The position numbers and the translations under genes are program-made. From an uncultured bacterium (lineage in GTDB: Bacteria; Krumholzibacteriota; Krumholzibacteriia; Krumholzibacteriales; Krumholzibacteriaceae): DNA of 64,000 nt. The stretch covers positions 1,180 to 65,179 of the forward strand of contig CAWFAD010000011.1 in the NCBI GenBank assembly GCA_963813815.1, in the 5' to 3' direction. The notes under the pieces were generated by a model. It was not told the origin of the DNA, searched no databases, and saw nothing but the letters and a program-made list of their open reading frames with translations. Below, piece by piece: positions 54,765-64,000 of this stretch. Position 1 is the first letter of the stretch, and each line of letters starts with the position of its first letter.

Positions 54765-57188
54765 CTACCTCGCGAGCACCATCTTCTTCGTTTCCGAGTA
54801 GGCGCCCGTCTCGAGCCGGTAGAAATACACTCCGCTCGCGACGGCCCGCCCCGATGCGTCGCACCCGTCCCAGATCTCGGTATACCGCCCCGCCGTGCGA
54901 TGCTCCTCAACGAGCGCGCGAACGAGCCGCCCCGCGGGGTCGTAGATGCGGAGCGATACGCGCGCCGGCGTCCCGAGGCCGAACTCGACCCGCGTCATCG
55001 GATTGAAAGGATTCGGATAGTTCTGCGCGAGGTAGCTCGCCTCGGGCGGCGGAGGCGTCTCTCCGCCCGTGATCTGCTCGGGCGCGAGAATCGCGAAGCC
55101 GCTCTCGTTTCCATGGATATCGACCGCCGAGACCTTGTAGTAGTAGCCCACACTCCAGCTCCAGCCCGCGTCGAAGCAGATCGTGTCCTCGGGAGAGGCG
55201 ATGAGGTTCCCCTCATCGGGAATGAAATCCTCCGCGATCCCGCGGTACACGCGATAGCCCGCGAGGTCGGCCTCGGTATTGCCGTCCCACGAGAGCTCGA
55301 GGCCGTCGGGCACGTAGCTCTGCTCGGCCGCGAGGCCGAGAGGCAGGGTAGGGGCGAGGTTGTCGACCGAGTAGCCGCTGTCCGGCGCCGATTTCCAGAA
55401 CACGAAGGGGTCGGACGTGTGAGCCACCACCTGGAAGTAATGATACTCGCCGCAAGCGGCGGTCGAGTCGAAGAGAGTGGCCACGGGCTTCCCGTATGCC
55501 TCCATGTAGAGCGCGTCGACCGTCTCCACGAGCTCCCAGAAGTAGGTGAGCGCTCCGATCTGCTCGACCCGTACGACGGGCTTGTCGGCCGCGGTATCGA
55601 GCTCGGATAGAGACGCGAGGGGCGAAACGCCCGAGTCGAGGGCGAGCGCCGCCTGCGTCGGACTGATGGCGCGCCAGATCGAGTAGTACGACATATCGCC
55701 CGTCATGAAGAGGTCGGGGCGGGCCGCGTACCAGGAGAGGTACACCTTGCCTCCCTGATCGCCGGGGACGTCGCGGACGGTGTGGATCTCCGGCGACAGC
55801 ATGCCGGTGCGACCGAACGTGTCTATGAATTGAACGTAGATGTCGCCGTTCCCATCGCGGTAATCCGACCATGCGACGATCGCGCCGCCCCTGTTATCTG
55901 AGGCGATCACGGGATACTCCTGCGTCTGTGCCGCGGTGCAAAGAGCGACCCCATCCGCGGCCCATTGAACCGCTCCCGAAGGATTCACTCGCTGGGCGTA
56001 GATGTCATAGATCCCGCTGCGGGCGTCGAACCATGAGATGATGGCGCCGCCGTCGACGTCGGAAGCGATGACGGGATAATACTGAGTCCCGGTCGCCGTG
56101 CAGACGGCGATGCCGTTGGCGATCCACTGGACGACACCCGAGGCATCCAGCTTTTGAGCGTAGATGTCATAGTTGCTGCCGTTGCGATAGTCGTACCACG
56201 AGACGATGGCGCCGCCGGCATCGTCGGATACGATGACTGGATAATATTGAGCTCCCGTCGCAGTGCAGAGAGCGACGCCGGTCGTCGTCCATTGAACGAC
56301 TCCAGAGGCGTTCACGCGCTGGGCATAGATGTCGTAGTTCGCGCTGCGGTAGTCGTACCACGTGACGATCGCGCCGCCCGTCCCGTCGGAGGCAATGGTG
56401 GGATACTGCTGATTCCACGCGACGGTACAGAGGGCGACGCCGTCGACGGTCCATTGAGCGACTCCAGAGTTGCTCACTCGCTGAGCATAGATGTCATAGT
56501 TGCTGCCGTTGCGATAGTCCTGCCATGCGACGAGGGCTCCGCCGGCGCCGTCTGAGACGGTGGTGAGAGACAACTGGCCGTTCGCCGCCGCGCAGACGGC
56601 GACGCCATTGGCGGTCCACTGAACGACCCCCGAGGCATTCACCCTCTGAGCATAGACATCGTAGTTGGAGCCGCTCCGGTAGTCGTGCCACGTGATGATC
56701 GCGCCGCCGACACCGTCCGAGACTATCTTCGGGTTCAACTGATCGCCTGTCCCTGCGCACAGAACCACCCCGTTCGCCGCCCACTGAACGGCTCCCGAGG
56801 CATCGACCCTCTGCGCGTAGATGTCCCAGCTGGTGCTCGTGCGGTAATCGTGCCATGCGACGATCGCGCCGCCCGCGCCGTCGGAGACGATCGCCGGTAC
56901 CTGCTGGTCAAACGCCATCGTGCAAAGAGCGACTCCGTTGGCCGTCCACAAGACTTCTCCAGAGGCGCTCACGCGTTGCGCGTAGATGTCCGTGTTCGAG
57001 TTGCGGTAGTCGTTCCACGCGATGATCGCGCCGCCCGCGCCGTCGGAGCCGATTGCAGGGCGCAATTGATCTCCCGTGGCCGTACAGAGAGCGACGCCGT
57101 TTCCTACCCAATAAGCCCAGATCGAAGGCACGGCGATTACGAGCGAACCGAGCGCCAGCGCAAACGCAACCTTCATAGCCTTGCTCAT
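54765..57188 (-). CDS. secreted repeat protein with T9SS (Por) C-terminal sorting domain
   Basis: RBS GGGAG before MSKAMKVAFALALGSLVIA (signal peptide). Eight tandem repeats of about 54 aa (consensus G-V-A-L-C-T-A-x-x-Q-x-x-P-x-I-V-S-D-G-A-G-G-A-I-V-A-W-x-D-Y-R-x-G-S-N-Y-D-I-Y-A-Q-R-V-N-A-S-G-V-V-Q-W). C-terminus ...GVYFYRLETGAYSETKKMVLAR matches the T9SS type-A CTD pattern. Confidence 0.6.
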   Translation of the reverse strand: MSKAMKVAFALALGSLVIAVPSIWAYWVGNGVALCTATGDQLRPAIGSDGAGGAIIAWNDYRNSNTDIYAQRVSASGEVLWTANGVALCTMAFDQQVPAIVSDGAGGAIVAWHDYRTSTSWDIYAQRVDASGAVQWAANGVVLCAGTGDQLNPKIVSDGVGGAIITWHDYRSGSNYDVYAQRVNASGVVQWTANGVAVCAAANGQLSLTTVSDGAGGALVAWQDYRNGSNYDIYAQRVSNSGVAQWTVDGVALCTVAWNQQYPTIASDGTGGAIVTWYDYRSANYDIYAQRVNASGVVQWTTTGVALCTATGAQYYPVIVSDDAGGAIVSWYDYRNGSNYDIYAQKLDASGVVQWIANGIAVCTATGTQYYPVIASDVDGGAIISWFDARSGIYDIYAQRVNPSGAVQWAADGVALCTAAQTQEYPVIASDNRGGAIVAWSDYRDGNGDIYVQFIDTFGRTGMLSPEIHTVRDVPGDQGGKVYLSWYAARPDLFMTGDMSYYSIWRAISPTQAALALDSGVSPLASLSELDTAADKPVVRVEQIGALTYFWELVETVDALYMEAYGKPVATLFDSTAACGEYHYFQVVAHTSDPFVFWKSAPDSGYSVDNLAPTLPLGLAAEQSYVPDGLELSWDGNTEADLAGYRVYRGIAEDFIPDEGNLIASPEDTICFDAGWSWSVGYYYKVSAVDIHGNESGFAILAPEQITGGETPPPPEASYLAQNYPNPFNPMTRVEFGLGTPARVSLRIYDPAGRLVRALVEEHRTAGRYTEIWDGCDASGRAVASGVYFYRLETGAYSETKKMVLAR
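55814..57113. repeat. eight about 162-bp tandem DNA repeats encoding the propeller-like repeats of the T9SS protein
   Basis: Near-identical peptide repeats and a cluster of spurious same-length ORFs in the six-frame track across this interval. Confidence 0.6.
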
Positions 57189-57396
57189 GGTCGTTTCTCC
57201 CTTCAAGGATGAATTTCGAAGCTATTTATTTATAGTAGCATACAGCGACAGCCTCATAAAGCAGAATATATGGCTTCGAAGAGCTTGCTGCCCGCCTTTT
57301 GGCTTTGACTCGGCGCGCCATGCGCAATACACTGGTCTCGGTGGCGCAATGCTCATTCACCTATGAGACGCGTCTCCGTAAGATGAACCGGGAGCC

Positions 57397-58619: not shown

Positions 58620-60374
58620 TTACTGAATCTCCCTCGACTGCTCGTCGAAAAGGACGCGGTAGAGGCCGCCCGCCTGATAGAGCGTGTTGTGCGTGCCCGA
58701 CTCGACCAGCCTGCCTTCGCTCAGCACGAAGATACGGTCCGCGTTCGTCACGCTCGTGAGGCGGTGGGCGATGATGATGACGGTTTGGCCTCTCACCTTC
58801 TCGAAGTAGCTCCCGAGCACCTGCCGCTCCGTGCGCGGATCGAGGGCGGAGGTGGCCTCGTCGAGGACGTGGATGCGGGGCGCCTTGAGGAGCGACCGCG
58901 CGAGCGCGAGCCGCTGGCGCTCTCCGCCCGAGAGGCGGAGCCCCTGCTGGCCGACGATCGTCTCGAGCCCCTCCGGCAGATTCGCGAGAAACTCCCCGAG
59001 AGAGGCCGTCTCCATGGCCGCGACGAGCTCCGCCTCCGTGGCCCGCGGCCGGGCCATCCGCAGGTTCCCCGCGATCGTGTCGTGAAACAGCTGCGTCTCC
59101 TGCGGAACGACGCCGATCGCGCGGCGGAGGCTCTTGAGCTTCCAGCGCCTGAGGTCGAGATCGTCGATGTAGACCGCGCCTTGCTGCGGATCGAGGTAAC
59201 GGGCGATGATCGCGGCGAGCGTGGATTTGCCGCTTCCCGAGGGACCGACGAGCGCGATCACCTGCCCCGGCTCCACCGAGAGACTGATATTCTCTATCGC
59301 CCTCGCGCCGTTGGGCCACGTGAGGCCGACCTGCTCGAGGCGGATCGCGCCCGTGACGCGGGGCGGCGCCGTCGCCTCCGCGTGCTCCTGAATCTGCGGT
59401 TCCGTGTCGATGAGGTCGTACACTCGGGCGAGCGACGCCCTCGCCATCTGGAGCTCGATGTTGATGTCGATGAGCTGCGAGATCGGCCGGTAGAGACGGC
59501 TCGCGAGCGTGTAGAACGCCACGAGACTGCCGAGGCTGAGCGTTCCGCCGAGCACCCGTCTGCCTCCCATGAGAAATACGAGGATAAAGGCGCCGGTCGA
59601 CATGACGTCCGCGAGCGAGACTTGTCCCGCGCCGATCACGGAGAGGGCGAGGTTGCTGCGGATCCACGGCCGCGACACGCGGACGAGGCGGCGGGTCTCG
59701 GCCTTCTCCCGGATAAGTTCCTGAACGAGGCGGATGCTCGAAATCCGCTCCTCGAGAAACGAGAAGAGGTCGGAGATCGCGTCCCTCGCCTTGATTCCCT
59801 CTTCCTGAATGCGGTGGTTGATTTTCGCGAGGATGGCGACGAGGAACGGATAGACGAGGAGGAGCAGGAGCGTGAGGCTCGGATCGATCCAGAAGAGGAT
59901 CGTCAATATCCCGACGATCGTCAAAACGTCCTGAATCGCGTTGACGATCGTGTGGGCGGCCGCGTGCTGGAGCACGTCGATGTCGGAGCTGATTCTCGCG
60001 AGTATGTCGCCCGTCTGCTCTCCGCGGAAGAAGAAGGGGGAGAGGCGTTCGACGTGCTCGAAGGCCTGCCGGCGGTAGTCGAAGAGGATCCGAAGCCCCG
60101 AGTAGCTGTAGAGCCAGACCGAGATGAGACGGAATCCCGTGCGAAAGACGAGCACGCCGAGAAGTATGGACACGAGCATGAGAAGAAGCGAGTAGTTGCC
60201 GTCGCCGATCGCGCGGTCGATGATGGTTCGCAGGATCAGCGGATCGATCAGGTTGAGAAAGACGTTGATGATGAGGCAGACCGCGATTTCGGCCTGAAGG
60301 CCGTAGTAGGGGCTCACGCGCTCGCGGAGGAAGCGCCGCAAGAGCCCGCGTCGGCTGGGATTCGCCTGTTTCAT
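58620..60374 (-). CDS. ABC exporter (fused 6-TM permease + ATPase), bacteriocin/type I secretion-like but without an N-terminal C39 peptidase domain
   Basis: 584 aa. TM domain from residue about 20. Walker A GPSGSGKST, signature LSGGERQRLALAR, Walker B IHVLDEATSALD. Confidence 0.8.
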   Translation of the reverse strand: MKQANPSRRGLLRRFLRERVSPYYGLQAEIAVCLIINVFLNLIDPLILRTIIDRAIGDGNYSLLLMLVSILLGVLVFRTGFRLISVWLYSYSGLRILFDYRRQAFEHVERLSPFFFRGEQTGDILARISSDIDVLQHAAAHTIVNAIQDVLTIVGILTILFWIDPSLTLLLLLVYPFLVAILAKINHRIQEEGIKARDAISDLFSFLEERISSIRLVQELIREKAETRRLVRVSRPWIRSNLALSVIGAGQVSLADVMSTGAFILVFLMGGRRVLGGTLSLGSLVAFYTLASRLYRPISQLIDINIELQMARASLARVYDLIDTEPQIQEHAEATAPPRVTGAIRLEQVGLTWPNGARAIENISLSVEPGQVIALVGPSGSGKSTLAAIIARYLDPQQGAVYIDDLDLRRWKLKSLRRAIGVVPQETQLFHDTIAGNLRMARPRATEAELVAAMETASLGEFLANLPEGLETIVGQQGLRLSGGERQRLALARSLLKAPRIHVLDEATSALDPRTERQVLGSYFEKVRGQTVIIIAHRLTSVTNADRIFVLSEGRLVESGTHNTLYQAGGLYRVLFDEQSREIQ

Positions 60375-61441
60375 CGCTTCTTCGTCCCGGCGAGCCTTTC
60401 GATGAGGAGGTGGCCGAGAGAGACCTTCTCATCGACGATGATCCGCGCCTGCCCTTTCATTCCGTCATAGAGCGGGCCCGGCGCGGTCGAGGGGTCGAAG
60501 GACACCTTTACGGGAAAGCCGCCGCCGCTCCGGCAGTCGTCCACGAAATCGAGCCGCCCGGCGAGGGTGCCGTGGAGAAGCCAAGGGTATCCCTCGAGCC
60601 GGATTTTGACCCTGTGTCCGGGACGCGCGGAGGCGCGGCCGGCGTCGAAGACGGCGCCCTCGAAGCGGTCGGCCGGGCCGGTCGAGAGGCGCAGTATCTC
60701 CTCGCCGCGCGTTACGGTTCGTCCCATGAGCTCGAAGAGGTTCGCGCCGAGCACGATCCCCCGGGTATCCGCCGCGAGCGTGTCGAGGGCGAGCATGCGG
60801 TCCGTTTCACCCACAGCCGCGCGCTCCTCGGCGATTTGCCCGGCGAGATTCCGAATTTCCCCGTCGAGCTTCTCGATTTGGTCCCGATGCCGCGCTTCGA
60901 GCACGGGGCCCGCGGCCTCGGCTTCCTTGAGCGCCACCCGGGCGAGATCGAGGGCGAGCTCGGAATCCTGAAGCTCCAGCTTCGTCGTGAGCCCCATGTC
61001 CCAGAGCTGCTTCTTGAGATCGAACTGTATCTCGGCGCTCGAAAGCTCGAGCCGGCTCCGCTCGAGATCCCGCGAGGCTTGGAGAACCTCGGCGGGGTGG
61101 ATCTGCGAGGCGAGTCGCCCGCGCTCGGCTCGGAGCACGACGATGCGGTCCGACAGGTTCGCGATCCGCGCCCTGATCTGCTCGTCCTGCGCGCGGAGCG
61201 GGGAGGACTCGAATGCGACGAGCGGCGCGCCGGCCCTAACGCTGTCCCCCGGCGCCACGAAAATCCCTTCGACGCGGCCTTCCCACGGCGCATACACAGC
61301 GACGGTGCCGCCGGCGAGACGGCCCTCGGCGATGACGACCCGGTCGATTCGCACAAAGAGGAGGAGACAGACCACGGCGACGAAAAGGCAGGAGCCGAGC
61401 GTCAAAAGGGGACGCAAAAGAGGCAGTGGGCGACGATGCAT
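60371..61441 (-). CDS. HlyD-family membrane fusion / secretion adaptor protein
   Basis: N-terminal TM anchor, biotinyl/lipoyl-like hairpin, long coiled coil and a C-terminal beta domain. The stop overlaps the ABC gene start (ATGA). Confidence 0.8.
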   Translation of the reverse strand: MHRRPLPLLRPLLTLGSCLFVAVVCLLLFVRIDRVVIAEGRLAGGTVAVYAPWEGRVEGIFVAPGDSVRAGAPLVAFESSPLRAQDEQIRARIANLSDRIVVLRAERGRLASQIHPAEVLQASRDLERSRLELSSAEIQFDLKKQLWDMGLTTKLELQDSELALDLARVALKEAEAAGPVLEARHRDQIEKLDGEIRNLAGQIAEERAAVGETDRMLALDTLAADTRGIVLGANLFELMGRTVTRGEEILRLSTGPADRFEGAVFDAGRASARPGHRVKIRLEGYPWLLHGTLAGRLDFVDDCRSGGGFPVKVSFDPSTAPGPLYDGMKGQARIIVDEKVSLGHLLIERLAGTKKR

Positions 61442-61499: not shown

Positions 61500-61610
61500 T
61501 CAGAGAGGGCCGATTTCGCACGCGGGCGGATACTCGGCGCACTGCATGCAGTGCGTGAGCGGCGGTTTCACGTGCGCGATGTTCGTGGAATGCTTGACGA
61601 CGAACTTCAT
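61500..61610 (-). CDS. candidate RiPP precursor peptide 1 (36 aa): MKFVVKHSTNIAHVKPPLTHCMQCAEYPPACEIGPL
   Basis: RBS GAGGTG 7 nt upstream. One of six paralogous small ORFs sharing the MKFVVK N-terminus and the T-x-C-x-x-C-x-E-x-P-x-x-C C-terminal motif. Below the ORF-track size cutoff. Confidence 0.6.
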   Translation of the reverse strand: MKFVVKHSTNIAHVKPPLTHCMQCAEYPPACEIGPL

Positions 61611-61705
61611 TTATTTTCACCTCTTCGATGGGACGAAGTGGCGCGGTCGCAGGGACCGCGCCACTCGCCGAGCCATATCGATCGACGATTATCGAGAAAT
61701 CGCGA

Positions 61706-61813
61706 TCAAATGGGGTCGATGACGCAGGCTGCCGGATTCTCCTTGCAGAGCCAGCACAGCGTATAGTTGACCCTCTTCGCCACCTCGGCGTTACGCTTTA
61801 CGACGAACTTCAT
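61706..61813 (-). CDS. candidate RiPP precursor peptide 2 (35 aa): MKFVVKRNAEVAKRVNYTLCWLCKENPAACVIDPI
   Basis: RBS GGGAGGG upstream. Same family motif. Confidence 0.6.
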   Translation of the reverse strand: MKFVVKRNAEVAKRVNYTLCWLCKENPAACVIDPI

Positions 61814-61859
61814 TGTTTCCCTCCCTTCCCTTTCCTTGCCCGTACGGGCTCACCTGGCG

Positions 61860-61958
61860 CTAGAAGCAGAATATGGGGTTTTCCGAGCACTGGGCGCAGC
61901 GGGTCGTGGGACCATTATGCGGTCCGACGCCGTTACGGCCGAGAACGATGAACTTCAT
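61860..61958 (-). CDS. candidate RiPP precursor peptide 3 (32 aa): MKFIVLGRNGVGPHNGPTTRCAQCSENPIFCF
   Basis: RBS GAGGAG upstream. Same family motif. First gene after the putative internal operator/promoter. Confidence 0.6.
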   Translation of the reverse strand: MKFIVLGRNGVGPHNGPTTRCAQCSENPIFCF

Positions 61959-62016
61959 GAGGATCGCTCCTCTCGCAACGATTGGAGATACGGCAGCCGA
62001 AATTTAGAGAGTCCCT

Positions 62017-62033
62017 TGAACAATCAGTTCAAA
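62017..62033. promoter_or_regulatory. perfect palindrome TTGAAC-aatca-GTTCAA in the gap between precursor genes 4 and 3 (candidate operator or internal promoter element)
   Basis: Read directly from the sequence. Lies in the only long (about 250 bp) spacer inside the peptide array, about 75 bp upstream of the peptide 3 start codon. Confidence 0.3.
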
Positions 62034-62106
62034 AATAACCCTTTAATTTTGTCATAGAGCGCGGCGGGAGTCAAGGTATTTGGGAGTGGCCCGCGGAAAG
62101 GGAAAT

Positions 62107-62130
62107 GGCGCGCTCCCGGAGGAGCGCGCC
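62107..62130 (-). terminator. GC-rich hairpin GGCGCGCTCC-cgga-GGAGCGCGCC downstream of precursor gene 4 (possible attenuator or partial terminator)
   Basis: 10-bp perfect stem with a 4-nt loop. On the minus strand it is followed by a pyrimidine-rich ATTTCCCTTTCC stretch. A second, weaker hairpin (AGCACTT...AAGTGCT) lies at 62149-62174. Confidence 0.35.
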
Positions 62131-62209
62131 ATTCCATGGCGCATTCTCAGCACTTCGGAAATCCGCAAAGTGCTTGCGGGCACCGATGCTCATCGCGCGC
62201 CGGCTCCGA

Positions 62210-62308
62210 TCAGTAGCAGGCGAGTGGATTCTCCTTGCAGAGAAAGCACATTGTGATCCTCGGCATGGCCGATTTGCGCGTCTCGGCGGGCTTTACGACG
62301 AACTTCAT
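62210..62308 (-). CDS. candidate RiPP precursor peptide 4 (32 aa): MKFVVKPAETRKSAMPRITMCFLCKENPLACY
   Basis: RBS AAGGAGGTG upstream. Same family motif. Followed by two hairpins. Confidence 0.6.
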   Translation of the reverse strand: MKFVVKPAETRKSAMPRITMCFLCKENPLACY

Positions 62309-62349
62309 ACTTCACCTCCTTACGATGAACTTGATGTGTTCCCCCTCGC

Positions 62350-62466
62350 TCACTCGCACCAGTGCGGGTCTTCCGAGCAGAGGGCGCAGAGCGTATGTCT
62401 CGGAATAACGCCATCCGAAGGCTTCGCATGGCGCGTTTCGGGGTTTGATGTCACGATGAACTTCAT
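62350..62466 (-). CDS. candidate RiPP precursor peptide 5 (38 aa): MKFIVTSNPETRHAKPSDGVIPRHTLCALCSEDPHWCE
   Basis: RBS GGAGGAG upstream. Same family motif. Confidence 0.6.
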   Translation of the reverse strand: MKFIVTSNPETRHAKPSDGVIPRHTLCALCSEDPHWCE

Positions 62467-62486
62467 AGCGCCTCTCCTCCCTATTA

Positions 62487-62591
62487 TCACTCTTCGCAGG
62501 CGCGGGGCTCCTCATGGCAAAGCCAGCAGCGCGTCAAATGAGTGGAATTCGATCCGCGCGTCCCGAGCAACGGCTTCACGACGAATCTCAT
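62487..62591 (-). CDS. candidate RiPP precursor peptide 6 (34 aa): MRFVVKPLLGTRGSNSTHLTRCWLCHEEPRACEE
   Basis: RBS AGGAGGG upstream. Same family motif. First gene of the array, next to the divergent promoter region. Confidence 0.6.
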   Translation of the reverse strand: MRFVVKPLLGTRGSNSTHLTRCWLCHEEPRACEE

Positions 62592-62687
62592 GAGTACCCT
62601 CCTTTCCCCTAGGCTGAATTGGATGCTGAATTCGTTAAGCTTGACATATATGAAATAAGCTGTCAACATATTTAACGTGAGACTGTT
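62592..62687. promoter_or_regulatory. AT-rich divergent intergenic region between precursor gene 6 and the ATP-grasp gene, with TTGACA and repeated TGACATAT / CAACATAT half-sites flanked by GTTAA...TTAAC
   Basis: TTGACATATATGAAATAAGCTGTCAACATATTTAAC is read directly. It is the only strongly AT-rich spacer in the cluster and sits between divergent transcription units. Confidence 0.3.
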
Positions 62688-63599
62688 ATGGAAAAAGAGA
62701 TAATCCTCGTCGGAATTCCCGGATCGGGTCTCGCGAGGGAGATTGCCGCGCATCTCAGCGGCACTCTTTTTACTCCGAGGATCCTGTCCGTCGACGCGCC
62801 CTTCGAGGGGCGGGCGGTGACGTTTGCTCCCGGGACCATCGTGTGGGAAGGGGTCGAGCTGCTCGAGGCGAGCGCCATATTCGCGGAGTGTTCGGTATTC
62901 AACTGGCCGCAGGCGCTCCTTCCCTTCGAAAACGATTCCAGTGGGCTCGCGTATAAGGAATGGGCCATCTTCCAGCGGGAGGCGCGTTCGCTCGTCGTAT
63001 CCTCGCTCTGGGCGGCGGGGAGGGAGCGCCCGATGATAAACCCGCCGTCCGCGGCTCACCTCGCTCTCTCGCCCTCGATAGCGCTCGATTATCTGAAGCA
63101 AGCGGGGATCCAGGTCCATCCGTGGAGCGTCGAATCGGCTCCGCCGGATGAAGGGGCGGGAGCGGGGTTGGTTCTCGATGTCTGCGGGCGCGAGCGCTGG
63201 CATTCCCCGCGCCGGCCGCCGGCCGGCGACCCGGCTCTCGTGCTCGAGCCGCACGATAATGAGGTCGTGACCTTCATGGTCGCGGGCGGCTCGGTCCTCG
63301 GAGCGCTTCGCTACGCGCGAGGGGAATCGTGGGCGAAACGGCAGACGGGATCGATCGGGGCGGATGAGCCCGGGCTCACGATCGATCTCGCGCCTTTTTC
63401 CGAAGCGGCCGACCTCGCGAAACGCTCGACCGAAGCGCTCGGGCTCGTTTTCGCGGCGGTATCCGTTCGCGCGGGCGCTCATCCCCCCTCGGTCATGCTC
63501 GTCGAGGCGAGCCCCGATCTCGAATCATGGAACGCGAAACTCGCGGGGCGCGTCGCGCGCTCCCTCGCCGATTGTCTCGTCGCCGCGGCCAGCTCCTGA
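62688..63599 (+). CDS. ATP-grasp-like (RimK-type) protein, candidate peptide maturase
   Basis: 303 aa. An N-terminal pre-ATP-grasp-like region is followed by a C-terminal region resembling the RimK ATP-grasp core (...LGLVFAAVSVRAGAHPPSVMLVEASPDL...). The usual E-x-N metal motif appears as E-A-S, so catalytic competence is uncertain. Confidence 0.45.
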   Translation: MEKEIILVGIPGSGLAREIAAHLSGTLFTPRILSVDAPFEGRAVTFAPGTIVWEGVELLEASAIFAECSVFNWPQALLPFENDSSGLAYKEWAIFQREARSLVVSSLWAAGRERPMINPPSAAHLALSPSIALDYLKQAGIQVHPWSVESAPPDEGAGAGLVLDVCGRERWHSPRRPPAGDPALVLEPHDNEVVTFMVAGGSVLGALRYARGESWAKRQTGSIGADEPGLTIDLAPFSEAADLAKRSTEALGLVFAAVSVRAGAHPPSVMLVEASPDLESWNAKLAGRVARSLADCLVAAASS

Positions 63600-63631: not shown

Positions 63632-64000
63632 ATGAAAGCGTCGCGCTACAATAAGCTCTTCCAGGCTTCGAACGGCGCGTGGCTCGCCTTCAACGGGTGG
63701 ACCACCTCGCTCGCCGAGATCGAGCCGGAGCAGCTCGAGTTCTTCAGGGCCCTTCTCGCCGATCCCGACCATGTTCCGTGCGACACGGCCGAGAAACGCG
63801 ATATGCGCGAGGCGATGATCGAGGCTAATTTTCTCATCGAGGACGGCATGGACGAGCTCAGCGCGACCAAGGTCGACAGCATGCGCGACCGGTTCGGCGG
63901 AGATTACCTGTATCTCACGATAGCGCCGACCCTCAACTGCAACTTCCGGTGCGATTACTGCTACGAGGAGCACCTCAAGATCACGATGCCGAAGGCGATC
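63632..64000 (+). CDS. radical SAM / SPASM-domain peptide-modifying enzyme (5' part; runs off the window end)
   Basis: RBS AAGGAG. N-terminus MKASRYNKLFQASNGAWLAFNGWTTSLAEI... is typical of anSME-like peptide maturases. CNFRCDYCY CxxxCxxC motif at 63940-63966. Confidence 0.7.
   Translation, partial: MKASRYNKLFQASNGAWLAFNGWTTSLAEIEPEQLEFFRALLADPDHVPCDTAEKRDMREAMIEANFLIEDGMDELSATKVDSMRDRFGGDYLYLTIAPTLNCNFRCDYCYEEHLKITMPKAI

Follow-up and report, generated by a model that had tools for sequence, protein, structure and literature searches.

A degenerate graspetide-type ATP-grasp paralog in a peptide-modification operon of Krumholzibacteriota: a candidate non-catalytic scaffold or peptide-binding subunit

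Introduction

What does a protein do that is predicted to have the complete fold of an ATP-grasp ligase and has lost the residues of its active site, and why should it be kept as the first gene of a peptide-modification operon? The question is raised by one gene in a 64-kb stretch of DNA (hereafter the window; contig CAWFAD010000011.1 of assembly GCA_963813815.1) from an uncultured bacterium of the Krumholzibacteriaceae. This gene, which we call T, is followed by the gene for a radical S-adenosylmethionine (rSAM) maturase of the SPASM type, which runs past the end of the window. In related loci, these two are followed by a second ATP-grasp protein (G2) and a fourth protein (X), and we refer to the whole as the T-rSAM-G2-X operon. 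The original prediction, made from the nucleotide sequence alone, saw in T a RimK-like ATP-grasp protein with a degenerate metal-binding motif and offered two readings of it: a divergent ligase of the type that makes graspetides, which are ribosomally made peptides with post-translational modifications (RiPPs), or a non-catalytic recognition or scaffold partner of the rSAM enzyme. The evidence set out below fits the second reading better, although the binding that it presupposes is itself deduced from sequence. The best explanation overall, which we hold to be rather probable, is that T is a catalytically dead paralog of graspetide-type ATP-grasp ligases that serves as a peptide-binding or scaffold subunit. 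The two genes on which the argument turns within the window are as follows.

62688..63599, plus strand: T, full-length protein of the ATP-grasp fold, 303 aa, active site degenerate
63632..64000, plus strand: rSAM/SPASM maturase, N-terminal 123 aa, continuing past the window end

Results

Fold assignment of T

The open reading frame (ORF) of T begins with the start codon that comes first after a stop codon. It is real and does adjoin a SPASM maturase, as predicted, given that the gene starting at 63632 carries the motif CNFRCDYC and has orthologs matching PF04055 and TIGR04085. As a single sequence, T is nearly silent in database searches. It had no match in Pfam or NCBIfam at E<=10, reached none of the cut-offs of the RimK and RiPP ATP-grasp models of these collections (PF08443, TIGR00768, TIGR04184/5/7), and in a phmmer search against PDB sequences gave a chance match alone (E 0.85). 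A word-indexed search of 5.8 billion proteins returned three relatives of 52-57% identity, and a four-sequence T profile searched against 1.84 billion cluster representatives (50% identity clustering) returned a family of 97 proteins (E<=1e-3), in which 54 had E values below 1e-30; those matches that came with a source name are all labeled hypothetical protein. An alignment of 54 full-length members is the basis of the family profile and of all family counts given below.

The profile built from this alignment recovers what the single sequence hides. Against the PDB it matches RimK (5zct/4iwx) over the C-terminal domain at E 2.7e-10 and the graspetide ligase PsnB (7drm) over T residues 3-291 at E 3.6e-7; PF08443 is matched weakly by 8 of the 54 members taken singly, the best of them at E 4e-4. 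An AlphaFold2 model computed with the 54 sequences, which is the model used throughout, has a mean predicted local distance difference test score (pLDDT) of 95.4 and a predicted template modeling score of 0.93, whereas a run with a four-sequence alignment was uninformative (pLDDT 47.6). When this model was compared with the PDB by Foldseek, PsnB came first (E 4.6e-15, template modeling score ~0.70), followed by PruB, AMdnB, RimK, MdnB, CdnC and MdnC, and all of the best 50 matches were ATP-grasp enzymes. Since the family profile, the AlphaFold2 model and the Foldseek matches agree, we regard the predicted three-domain fold of T, and with it membership in the ATP-grasp superfamily at the level of fold, as a secure assignment, and by the same sequence and model comparisons the nearest solved relatives of T are ligases of graspetides. 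The RimK-like architecture that had been proposed is thus invisible in the single sequence and emerges from the 54-member profile and the model. The same holds for the lack of a significant ATP-grasp match, which the original prediction had named as one of two results that would speak against it: true of T on its own, it gives way to the evidence of the family profile and of the structure model.

Loss of the canonical active site

We aligned the T family with PsnB, E. coli RimK and G2 by HMMER, MAFFT and hhalign, and all three agree on the residues that stand at the canonical positions.

First ATP-binding Lys (RimK K100, PsnB ITKP): S128/P129 in T; Pro in 47/54 family members
Second Lys (RimK K141; PsnB IYKPVAGG): L163/D164 in T; L/I/R/V in the family, with D164 94% conserved
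Position of PsnB Arg213: Thr in T; T/S/E in the family, Arg in 2/54
D(F/W)R loop: deleted in T; columns are gaps in 53/54
Mg-binding Asp (RimK D248): S259 in T; S/T/A in the family, Asp in 6/54
E-x-N motif (RimK E260, N262): L271-V272-E273 in T; L/F/W/A/Y at the Glu position and D/E at the Asn position in the family

The E-x-N motif had been described as degenerate and placed at E-A-S in the segment SVMLVEASPDL (residues 268-278). The degeneracy stands and the register does not: E273-A-S275 is two residues off, as all three alignment methods put E260-V-N262 of RimK on L271-V272-E273. The ATP-binding signature of Lys and Arg, which had been hard to find by eye, is indeed missing, as there is no conserved Lys column across the 54 members and 12 of them are proteins without a single lysine. 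An Arg that could compensate for the lost Lys was also considered and rejected, because the one invariant Arg of the family, R97, maps to a helix away from the phosphate site. Of the Gly-rich loop, G167 alone is kept. In the T family, the lid (B-domain) segment is 41 aa long at the median, versus 56-62 aa in G2, PsnB and RimK, which makes the lid of T some 15-20 residues shorter than in graspetide ligases, and the model of T has no helix across residues 139-211. In PsnB, Arg213 is the residue that brings the ring-forming carboxylate to ATP (preprint 10.1101/2021.03.09.434688).

T retains neither of the two Lys, nor the substrate Arg, nor the D(F/W)R loop, nor any of the three Mg ligands, and is therefore predicted to be unable to form an acyl-phosphate, and hence to lack the capacity for canonical ATP-grasp chemistry. 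The lost positions vary within the family, which points to relaxed selection on the lost function. We therefore consider it very improbable that T is a divergent and still active graspetide-type ligase making one ester or amide while G2 makes another, in the manner of MdnB and MdnC in microviridin biosynthesis. Such a ligase would account for the ATP-grasp fold closest to that of graspetide ligases and for the neighboring peptides with a conserved Thr and Glu, and other clusters that encode a pair of ATP-grasp ligases have been described (PMC8939145; PMC12848669). It would have to work with the canonical ATP, Mg and substrate residues all replaced, most of them by residues that vary from member to member, with a truncated lid domain and Gly-rich loop, with no conserved Arg near the Lys positions, and, in 12 of the 54 members, without any lysine at all. 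There would also be little for it to do, as the core peptide has one invariant acid, for which a single ligase suffices, and the gene of an intact ligase lies two genes downstream of T, past the window end.

Retained residues and evolution of the T family

While the ligase residues are lost, others are kept. Five residues are invariant among the 54 members (W73-P74-Q75, R97 and L102) and about 15 are near-invariant, with members down to ~27% identity; the latter include W53, G55, E67, W146, D164, G167 and W281, D277 is a further residue conserved specifically in this family, and S105 and A106 are conserved as well. T of the window, the seed of the family, carries all of the family-defining residues, and it also has the family-defining position directly upstream of an rSAM/SPASM gene that is followed by G2. 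In alignment to PsnB, W-P-Q falls on the beta6-alpha3 loop, which in PsnB gains order on binding of the core peptide (10.1101/2021.03.09.434688). D164 and G167 align to the former phosphate-loop strand, and D277 and W281 to the helix after the E-x-N strand. R97, L102, S105 and A106 lie on a long helix that matches the alpha3/alpha4 dimer interface of PsnB, with R97 itself aligned to PsnB R101, which in crystal structures crosses the dimer and binds the core-peptide Glu in the neighboring subunit (10.1101/2021.03.09.434688). T proteins have a net charge of -2 to -15, and the precursor peptides are net basic.

T diverges fastest of the four operon proteins: over eight loci, its mean pairwise identity amounts to 42%, as against 53% in G2, 54% in X and 59% in the rSAM enzyme. 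This rate, together with the loss of catalytic residues, is what would be expected if T were all that is left of a duplicated ligase gene, in decay and without function. We give almost no credence to this explanation. The ORF is intact in every locus examined, the invariant and near-invariant residues persist over the 54 members, the fold is predicted with very high confidence, the family has 97 representatives, and T holds a fixed position in its operon, with translational coupling. By its invariant residues and the number of its representatives, the family appears to be still under selection. Because T is conserved, always present, confidently folded and fixed in its operon position, with residues that do not vary, it is very probably a non-catalytic ATP-grasp paralog with a retained and selected function, though not that of a ligase.

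The operon beyond the window

The fragment of the rSAM gene that lies in the window, which starts 32 bases past T, encodes an N-terminal extension of ~95 aa followed by the CNFRCDYC (CxxxCxxC) motif, and it matches TIGR04334 (E 8e-23) and TIGR04463 (E 2e-17). Full-length orthologs match PF04055 and the SPASM model TIGR04085 (for example L002 4967-6331). The closest models of the rSAM enzyme are TIGR04463, TIGR04334, CefB, FlmE/OhkG and PapB, that is, maturases of the Cys-rich-peptide, sactipeptide and ranthipeptide type, and all of them stay under cut-off. The ~95-aa extension is matched from position 1 of RiPP rSAM/SPASM maturase models.

What follows the rSAM gene was read from two short public contigs with an identical T, in which T is succeeded by a 454-aa PF04055 rSAM protein, by a second protein, of 313 aa, that matches RimK weakly, and by a fourth gene, and from related loci that were available in full (L002, L004, L007, L009, L011/L012) or in part (L005, L006, L010). 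Two further loci, L013 and L014, were picked from a search on the side of G2 to avoid circularity. The plus strand of the related loci encodes T, an rSAM/SPASM protein of 449-463 aa, G2 of 310-325 aa and X of ~250-300 aa, and the minus strand carries the genes of an ABC exporter and an HlyD adaptor as well as up to three precursor genes, with at least one in each case. The order T-rSAM-G2 is kept in all loci with enough sequence. L013 and L014 are among them; here too T lies directly upstream of the rSAM gene, at a T-profile score of 285-334 bits. X follows G2 in all of these loci except L007. Adjacent plus-strand genes frequently overlap by 4 bp, T and the rSAM gene often among them, and the operon is thus often translationally coupled. 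At least 161 clusters came up when a G2 alignment was used as the query, and the source names on the relatives of G2 are of metagenome-assembled genomes of Planctomycetota and Krumholzibacteriota only.

By its sequence, G2 appears to be an ordinary, intact graspetide-type ligase. It retains both Lys, the GG loop, QE, the equivalent of Arg213, D-x-R, the Mg-binding Asp and E-x-N; it passes the cut-off of PF08443 and weakly matches TIGR00768 and TIGR04187, and the L002 member aligns with PsnB over its full length (E 2.3e-18). The G2 of the window genome (P0157, 313 aa) is found on the same contigs as T and keeps LKP, IRKGMVGG, QE, NLRAF, DTR, VDF and LECNSAP. P0157 has two lysines in its 313 residues, and both are catalytic (HALKPHE and WIRKGMVGG), which makes it an internal control for the lysine-free T proteins of GC-rich genomes. 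The T and G2 families align with each other by hhalign over 276 columns at ~20% identity (probability 98.4%, E 8.5e-15), from which we take them to be full-length paralogs.

The place of T directly upstream of the rSAM gene, often with the 4-bp overlap, is also what would be seen if T were a chaperone of the rSAM/SPASM enzyme alone, a large analog of PqqD or of the 'LPL' proteins with no functional tie to G2; a small putative chaperone stands at the same position in the ATP-grasp and SPASM loci of Bacteroidetes (PMC8939145). Two features do not sit well with such a role, namely that the rSAM enzyme brings its own ~95-aa N-terminal extension, and that T descends from dimerizing ligases and keeps the PsnB alpha3/alpha4 helix with R97, L102, S105 and A106. 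An exclusive service to the rSAM enzyme thus seems unlikely to us, though it is the least unlikely of the alternatives weighed here. It overlaps with the explanation that we prefer, in which T is a scaffold or peptide-binding subunit, and the two are not mutually exclusive.

The fourth gene, X, was located in six of the related loci, and in the window genome it lies past position 64000.

L002 7372-8118: X, fourth operon gene
L004 9158-9934: X, fourth operon gene
L009 4353-5156: X, fourth operon gene
L011 13130-13930: X, fourth operon gene
L013 8930-9838: X, fourth operon gene
L014 8948-9823: X, fourth operon gene
L007 6147-7355: replacement of X, 402 aa, with HELAGH (HExxH)

X is distantly related to the D-proline reductase PrdB and the GrdB selenoprotein B family (TIGR04483 at 98.6 bits against a cut-off of 300; PF07355 at E 0.005), a family that is unusual for a RiPP operon, and it carries a conserved P-T-C-S-[LVI]-C-V motif. 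The 402-aa protein of L007 has no Pfam match and, judging from its HExxH motif, may be a leader peptidase; a precursor gene with the usual motif was not found on the L007 contig.

Precursor peptides and export

Divergent from the T operon, six tandem precursor genes occupy 61500-62591 on the minus strand of the window, followed by the genes of an export system.

62487..62591, minus strand: precursor peptide MRFVVKPLLGTRGSNSTHLTRCWLCHEEPRACEE
62350..62466, minus strand: precursor peptide MKFIVTSNPETRHAKPSDGVIPRHTLCALCSEDPHWCE
62210..62308, minus strand: precursor peptide MKFVVKPAETRKSAMPRITMCFLCKENPLACY
61860..61958, minus strand: precursor peptide MKFIVLGRNGVGPHNGPTTRCAQCSENPIFCF
61706..61813, minus strand: precursor peptide MKFVVKRNAEVAKRVNYTLCWLCKENPAACVIDPI
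61500..61610, minus strand: precursor peptide MKFVVKHSTNIAHVKPPLTHCMQCAEYPPACEIGPL
60371..61441, minus strand: HlyD-family membrane-fusion protein (secretion adaptor), 356 aa, TIGR01843 at E 2e-15, under cut-off
58620..60374, minus strand: ABC exporter, permease and ATPase, 584 aa, PF00664 and PF00005

The six peptides of the window begin with MKF[IV]V or MRFVV and end in a Cys-rich motif. Aligned with those of related loci (20 peptides from 10 loci; such precursor genes were noted in the window and in L001-L006, L009, L011, L013 and L014), they follow the pattern MKF[IV]V, a basic linker of ~8-18 residues, T-x-C-x-x-C-x-E-x-P-x-x-C and a short tail. Eight residues are invariant over the 20 precursors (M1, V5, T, C, C, E, P and C), among them the Thr and Glu that the original prediction had seen conserved in the neighboring peptides; the precursors match none of the Pfam or NCBIfam precursor models. 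The sole invariant Glu and the sole invariant Thr would suit a single ester made by G2, and the three invariant Cys would suit thioether formation by the rSAM/SPASM enzyme.

The HlyD gene has the same position in related loci. The ABC exporter matches the profiles of bacteriocin and NHLP-type ABC transporters from profile position ~140-160 on only and, because the matches start there, is predicted to have no N-terminal C39 peptidase domain; in most loci a dedicated leader protease was not seen. A step of the pathway may thus seem to lack its enzyme, and T could be thought to supply it as a neo-functional enzyme that carries out an ATP-independent reaction in its cleft (E67, Q75, R97, D164, D/E273, D277 and four Trp). 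Leader removal, an isomerization and a metal-dependent step on the Cys-rich core would be candidates for the reaction. Several invariant or near-invariant polar residues of T do align with positions of the PsnB active-site cleft, and most loci encode no leader peptidase, as the exporter lacks C39 and an HExxH protein is present in L007 only. T has, on the other side, no hydrolase or isomerase motif that we could recognize, and its rate of divergence (42% identity versus 53-59% for the other three enzymes) fits a binding protein better. A precedent for ATP-independent catalysis by a protein of the ATP-grasp fold is not known to us, and a new enzymatic activity of T, including each of the steps just named, appears to us improbable.

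The GC content falls from 0.62-0.68 in the flanks to 0.56-0.57 at 61500-63000, a stretch that takes in the precursor genes together with the divergent intergenic region. A scan of the AT-rich divergent region (62592-62687) for promoters, including sigma-70 promoters, and for terminators gave no convincing match. Further along the minus strand (54765-57206) lies a gene for an 813-aa protein with a signal-like N-terminal segment and about ten repeats of ~45 aa (…GGAI..W.DYR…YDIYAQRV.ASG..QW..NGVA.C…), the C-terminal part of which bears a likeness, by eye, to FlgD-Ig domains or to sorting domains of the type IX secretion system.

Discussion

Our analysis suggests that T has exchanged the chemistry of an ATP-grasp ligase for another role in the same pathway. 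In the mechanism that we propose, the remodeled former active-site cleft, with its invariant or near-invariant residues W53, E67, W73-P74-Q75, R97, W146, D164, D277 and W281, would bind the basic precursor, a partner enzyme or both, and T would act as a non-catalytic scaffold or a subunit that presents the substrate. Its most plausible partner would be G2, with which it may form a fixed asymmetric heterodimer, placed beside the rSAM enzyme encoded directly downstream. The Thr-Glu ester would then be the work of G2, and the cross-linking of the three invariant Cys that of the rSAM/SPASM enzyme. These parts of the proposal do not deserve equal trust. For a scaffold or peptide-binding mechanism in general we see about even chances. 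The specific pairing of T with G2 is tentative and, on its own, rather doubtful, and we would say the same of its fullest form, where T would be an obligate asymmetric heterodimer with G2 that docks the rSAM/SPASM enzyme, such that lactonization and Cys cross-linking are coordinated on one 13-residue core.

Several points weigh against a scaffold or peptide-binding role. Binding of T to the precursor, to G2 or to the rSAM enzyme is something that we infer from sequence, and the clustering of the conserved residues in a cleft is likewise read from the alignment to PsnB. T has none of the leader-binding helices of the PsnB type, so that leader binding in the style of PsnB is impossible. The ~95-aa extension of the rSAM enzyme may make T unneeded if it resembles a RiPP recognition element (RRE), and extensions of this kind usually do serve as RREs. 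The acidic residues E67, D164, D/E273 and D277, and the Trp-rich acidic cleft as a whole, could form a new catalytic or metal-binding site. Finally, G2 has an Arg equivalent to R101 and could homodimerize without T, and in PsnB R101 is itself largely dispensable for activity (10.1101/2021.03.09.434688).

If T does act as we propose, it would be the first ATP-grasp pseudoenzyme to serve as a substrate-recognition or scaffold subunit in RiPP biosynthesis, and the operon would offer a clean case of a homodimeric macrocyclase split into a catalytic and a non-catalytic subunit. RiPP precursors are usually recognized either by RRE domains or by the catalytic enzyme itself, and a dead full-length ATP-grasp paralog as an obligatory member of the operon would be a different solution to the same problem. 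The cluster, with its 13-residue core of T, C, C, E, P and C, its rSAM/SPASM enzyme, its ATP-grasp ligase and pseudo-ligase, and its PrdB-like protein, appears undescribed in the literature searched; we found no account there of the T family, of the cluster or of an ATP-grasp pseudoenzyme of a RiPP pathway, in a search that left most subscription-journal papers uncovered. It would, if our reading is right, amount to a new class of hybrid RiPPs in Planctomycetota and in bacteria of the Krumholzibacteriota type, and the small peptide made by it could carry ester and thioether cross-links together. A model of the T family, of which there is none in Pfam or NCBIfam, would flag such clusters in metagenomes.

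Comparison with known systems

The known proteins most similar to T, by structure and by profile, are the graspetide macrocyclases PsnB, MdnB/MdnC, AMdnB, CdnC and PruB. T shares with them the predicted three-domain fold, the Pro of the beta6-alpha3 loop and an Arg that corresponds to PsnB R101, and they too belong to RiPP clusters that encode small precursors and an exporter. It differs from them in lacking the Lys pair, R213, the DFR loop, the Mg triad, the Gly-rich loop and the leader-binding helices, and in having invariant or near-invariant residues of its own (W-P-Q, W53, W146, D164 and W281); T fails at each catalytic feature that we tested (Lys pair, Mg Asp/E-x-N, Gly-rich loop/lid, Arg213 and D(F/W)R). 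Its constant companion G2, with which it is always co-encoded, keeps the catalytic residues and matches the models, whereas T matches none.

Reuse of the ATP-grasp fold without ligase chemistry is seen in Synapsin and TTLL12, proteins of the ATP-grasp/TTL fold that have no known ligase activity. These are eukaryotic and of unrelated biology, and Synapsin still binds ATP. In terms of function, a closer analogy, and the closest that we can offer, is found in the E1-like/ocin-ThiF-like partners of YcaO cyclodehydratases, in which an inactivated homolog of an ATP-dependent enzyme is kept for substrate recognition. The fold of these partners is unrelated to that of T, and they bind the leader through an RRE, a domain that T does not have.

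In terms of gene content, the locus is most reminiscent of the grasp-with-spasm systems (TIGR04192/TIGR04193), a label that the original prediction had brought up. Both combine an ATP-grasp ligase with a SPASM maturase, HlyD and ABC proteins and an accessory gene upstream, which in the Bacteroidetes loci (branch 5) encodes a small protein of the LPL family ahead of the SPASM gene (PMC8939145). The label itself does not hold. T matches no grasp-with-spasm model in NCBIfam (in a release for which the presence of TIGR04192 was not confirmed), none of the eight NCBIfam matches of G2 is of that kind, and TIGR04193 is not in the best 25 model matches of the rSAM enzyme, the best of which are TIGR04463 and TIGR04334, both under cut-off. 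The T locus further differs in having a paralog of the ligase in place of the LPL protein, as well as different precursors and a different taxonomy.

Clusters with several ATP-grasp proteins have been reported for microviridins and myxomiditides, and there the paralogs are all described as ligases (PMC12848669). The precedent nearest to T is found in the 'branch 8' graspetide loci, which encode a truncated, catalytically inactive ATP-grasp protein (Makarova et al. 2022, PMC8939145), and thus a non-catalytic derivative of the fold beside an active ligase. Going by its published description, T differs from that protein in being full length, in having lost its catalytic residues position by position, and in being tied to an rSAM/SPASM enzyme.

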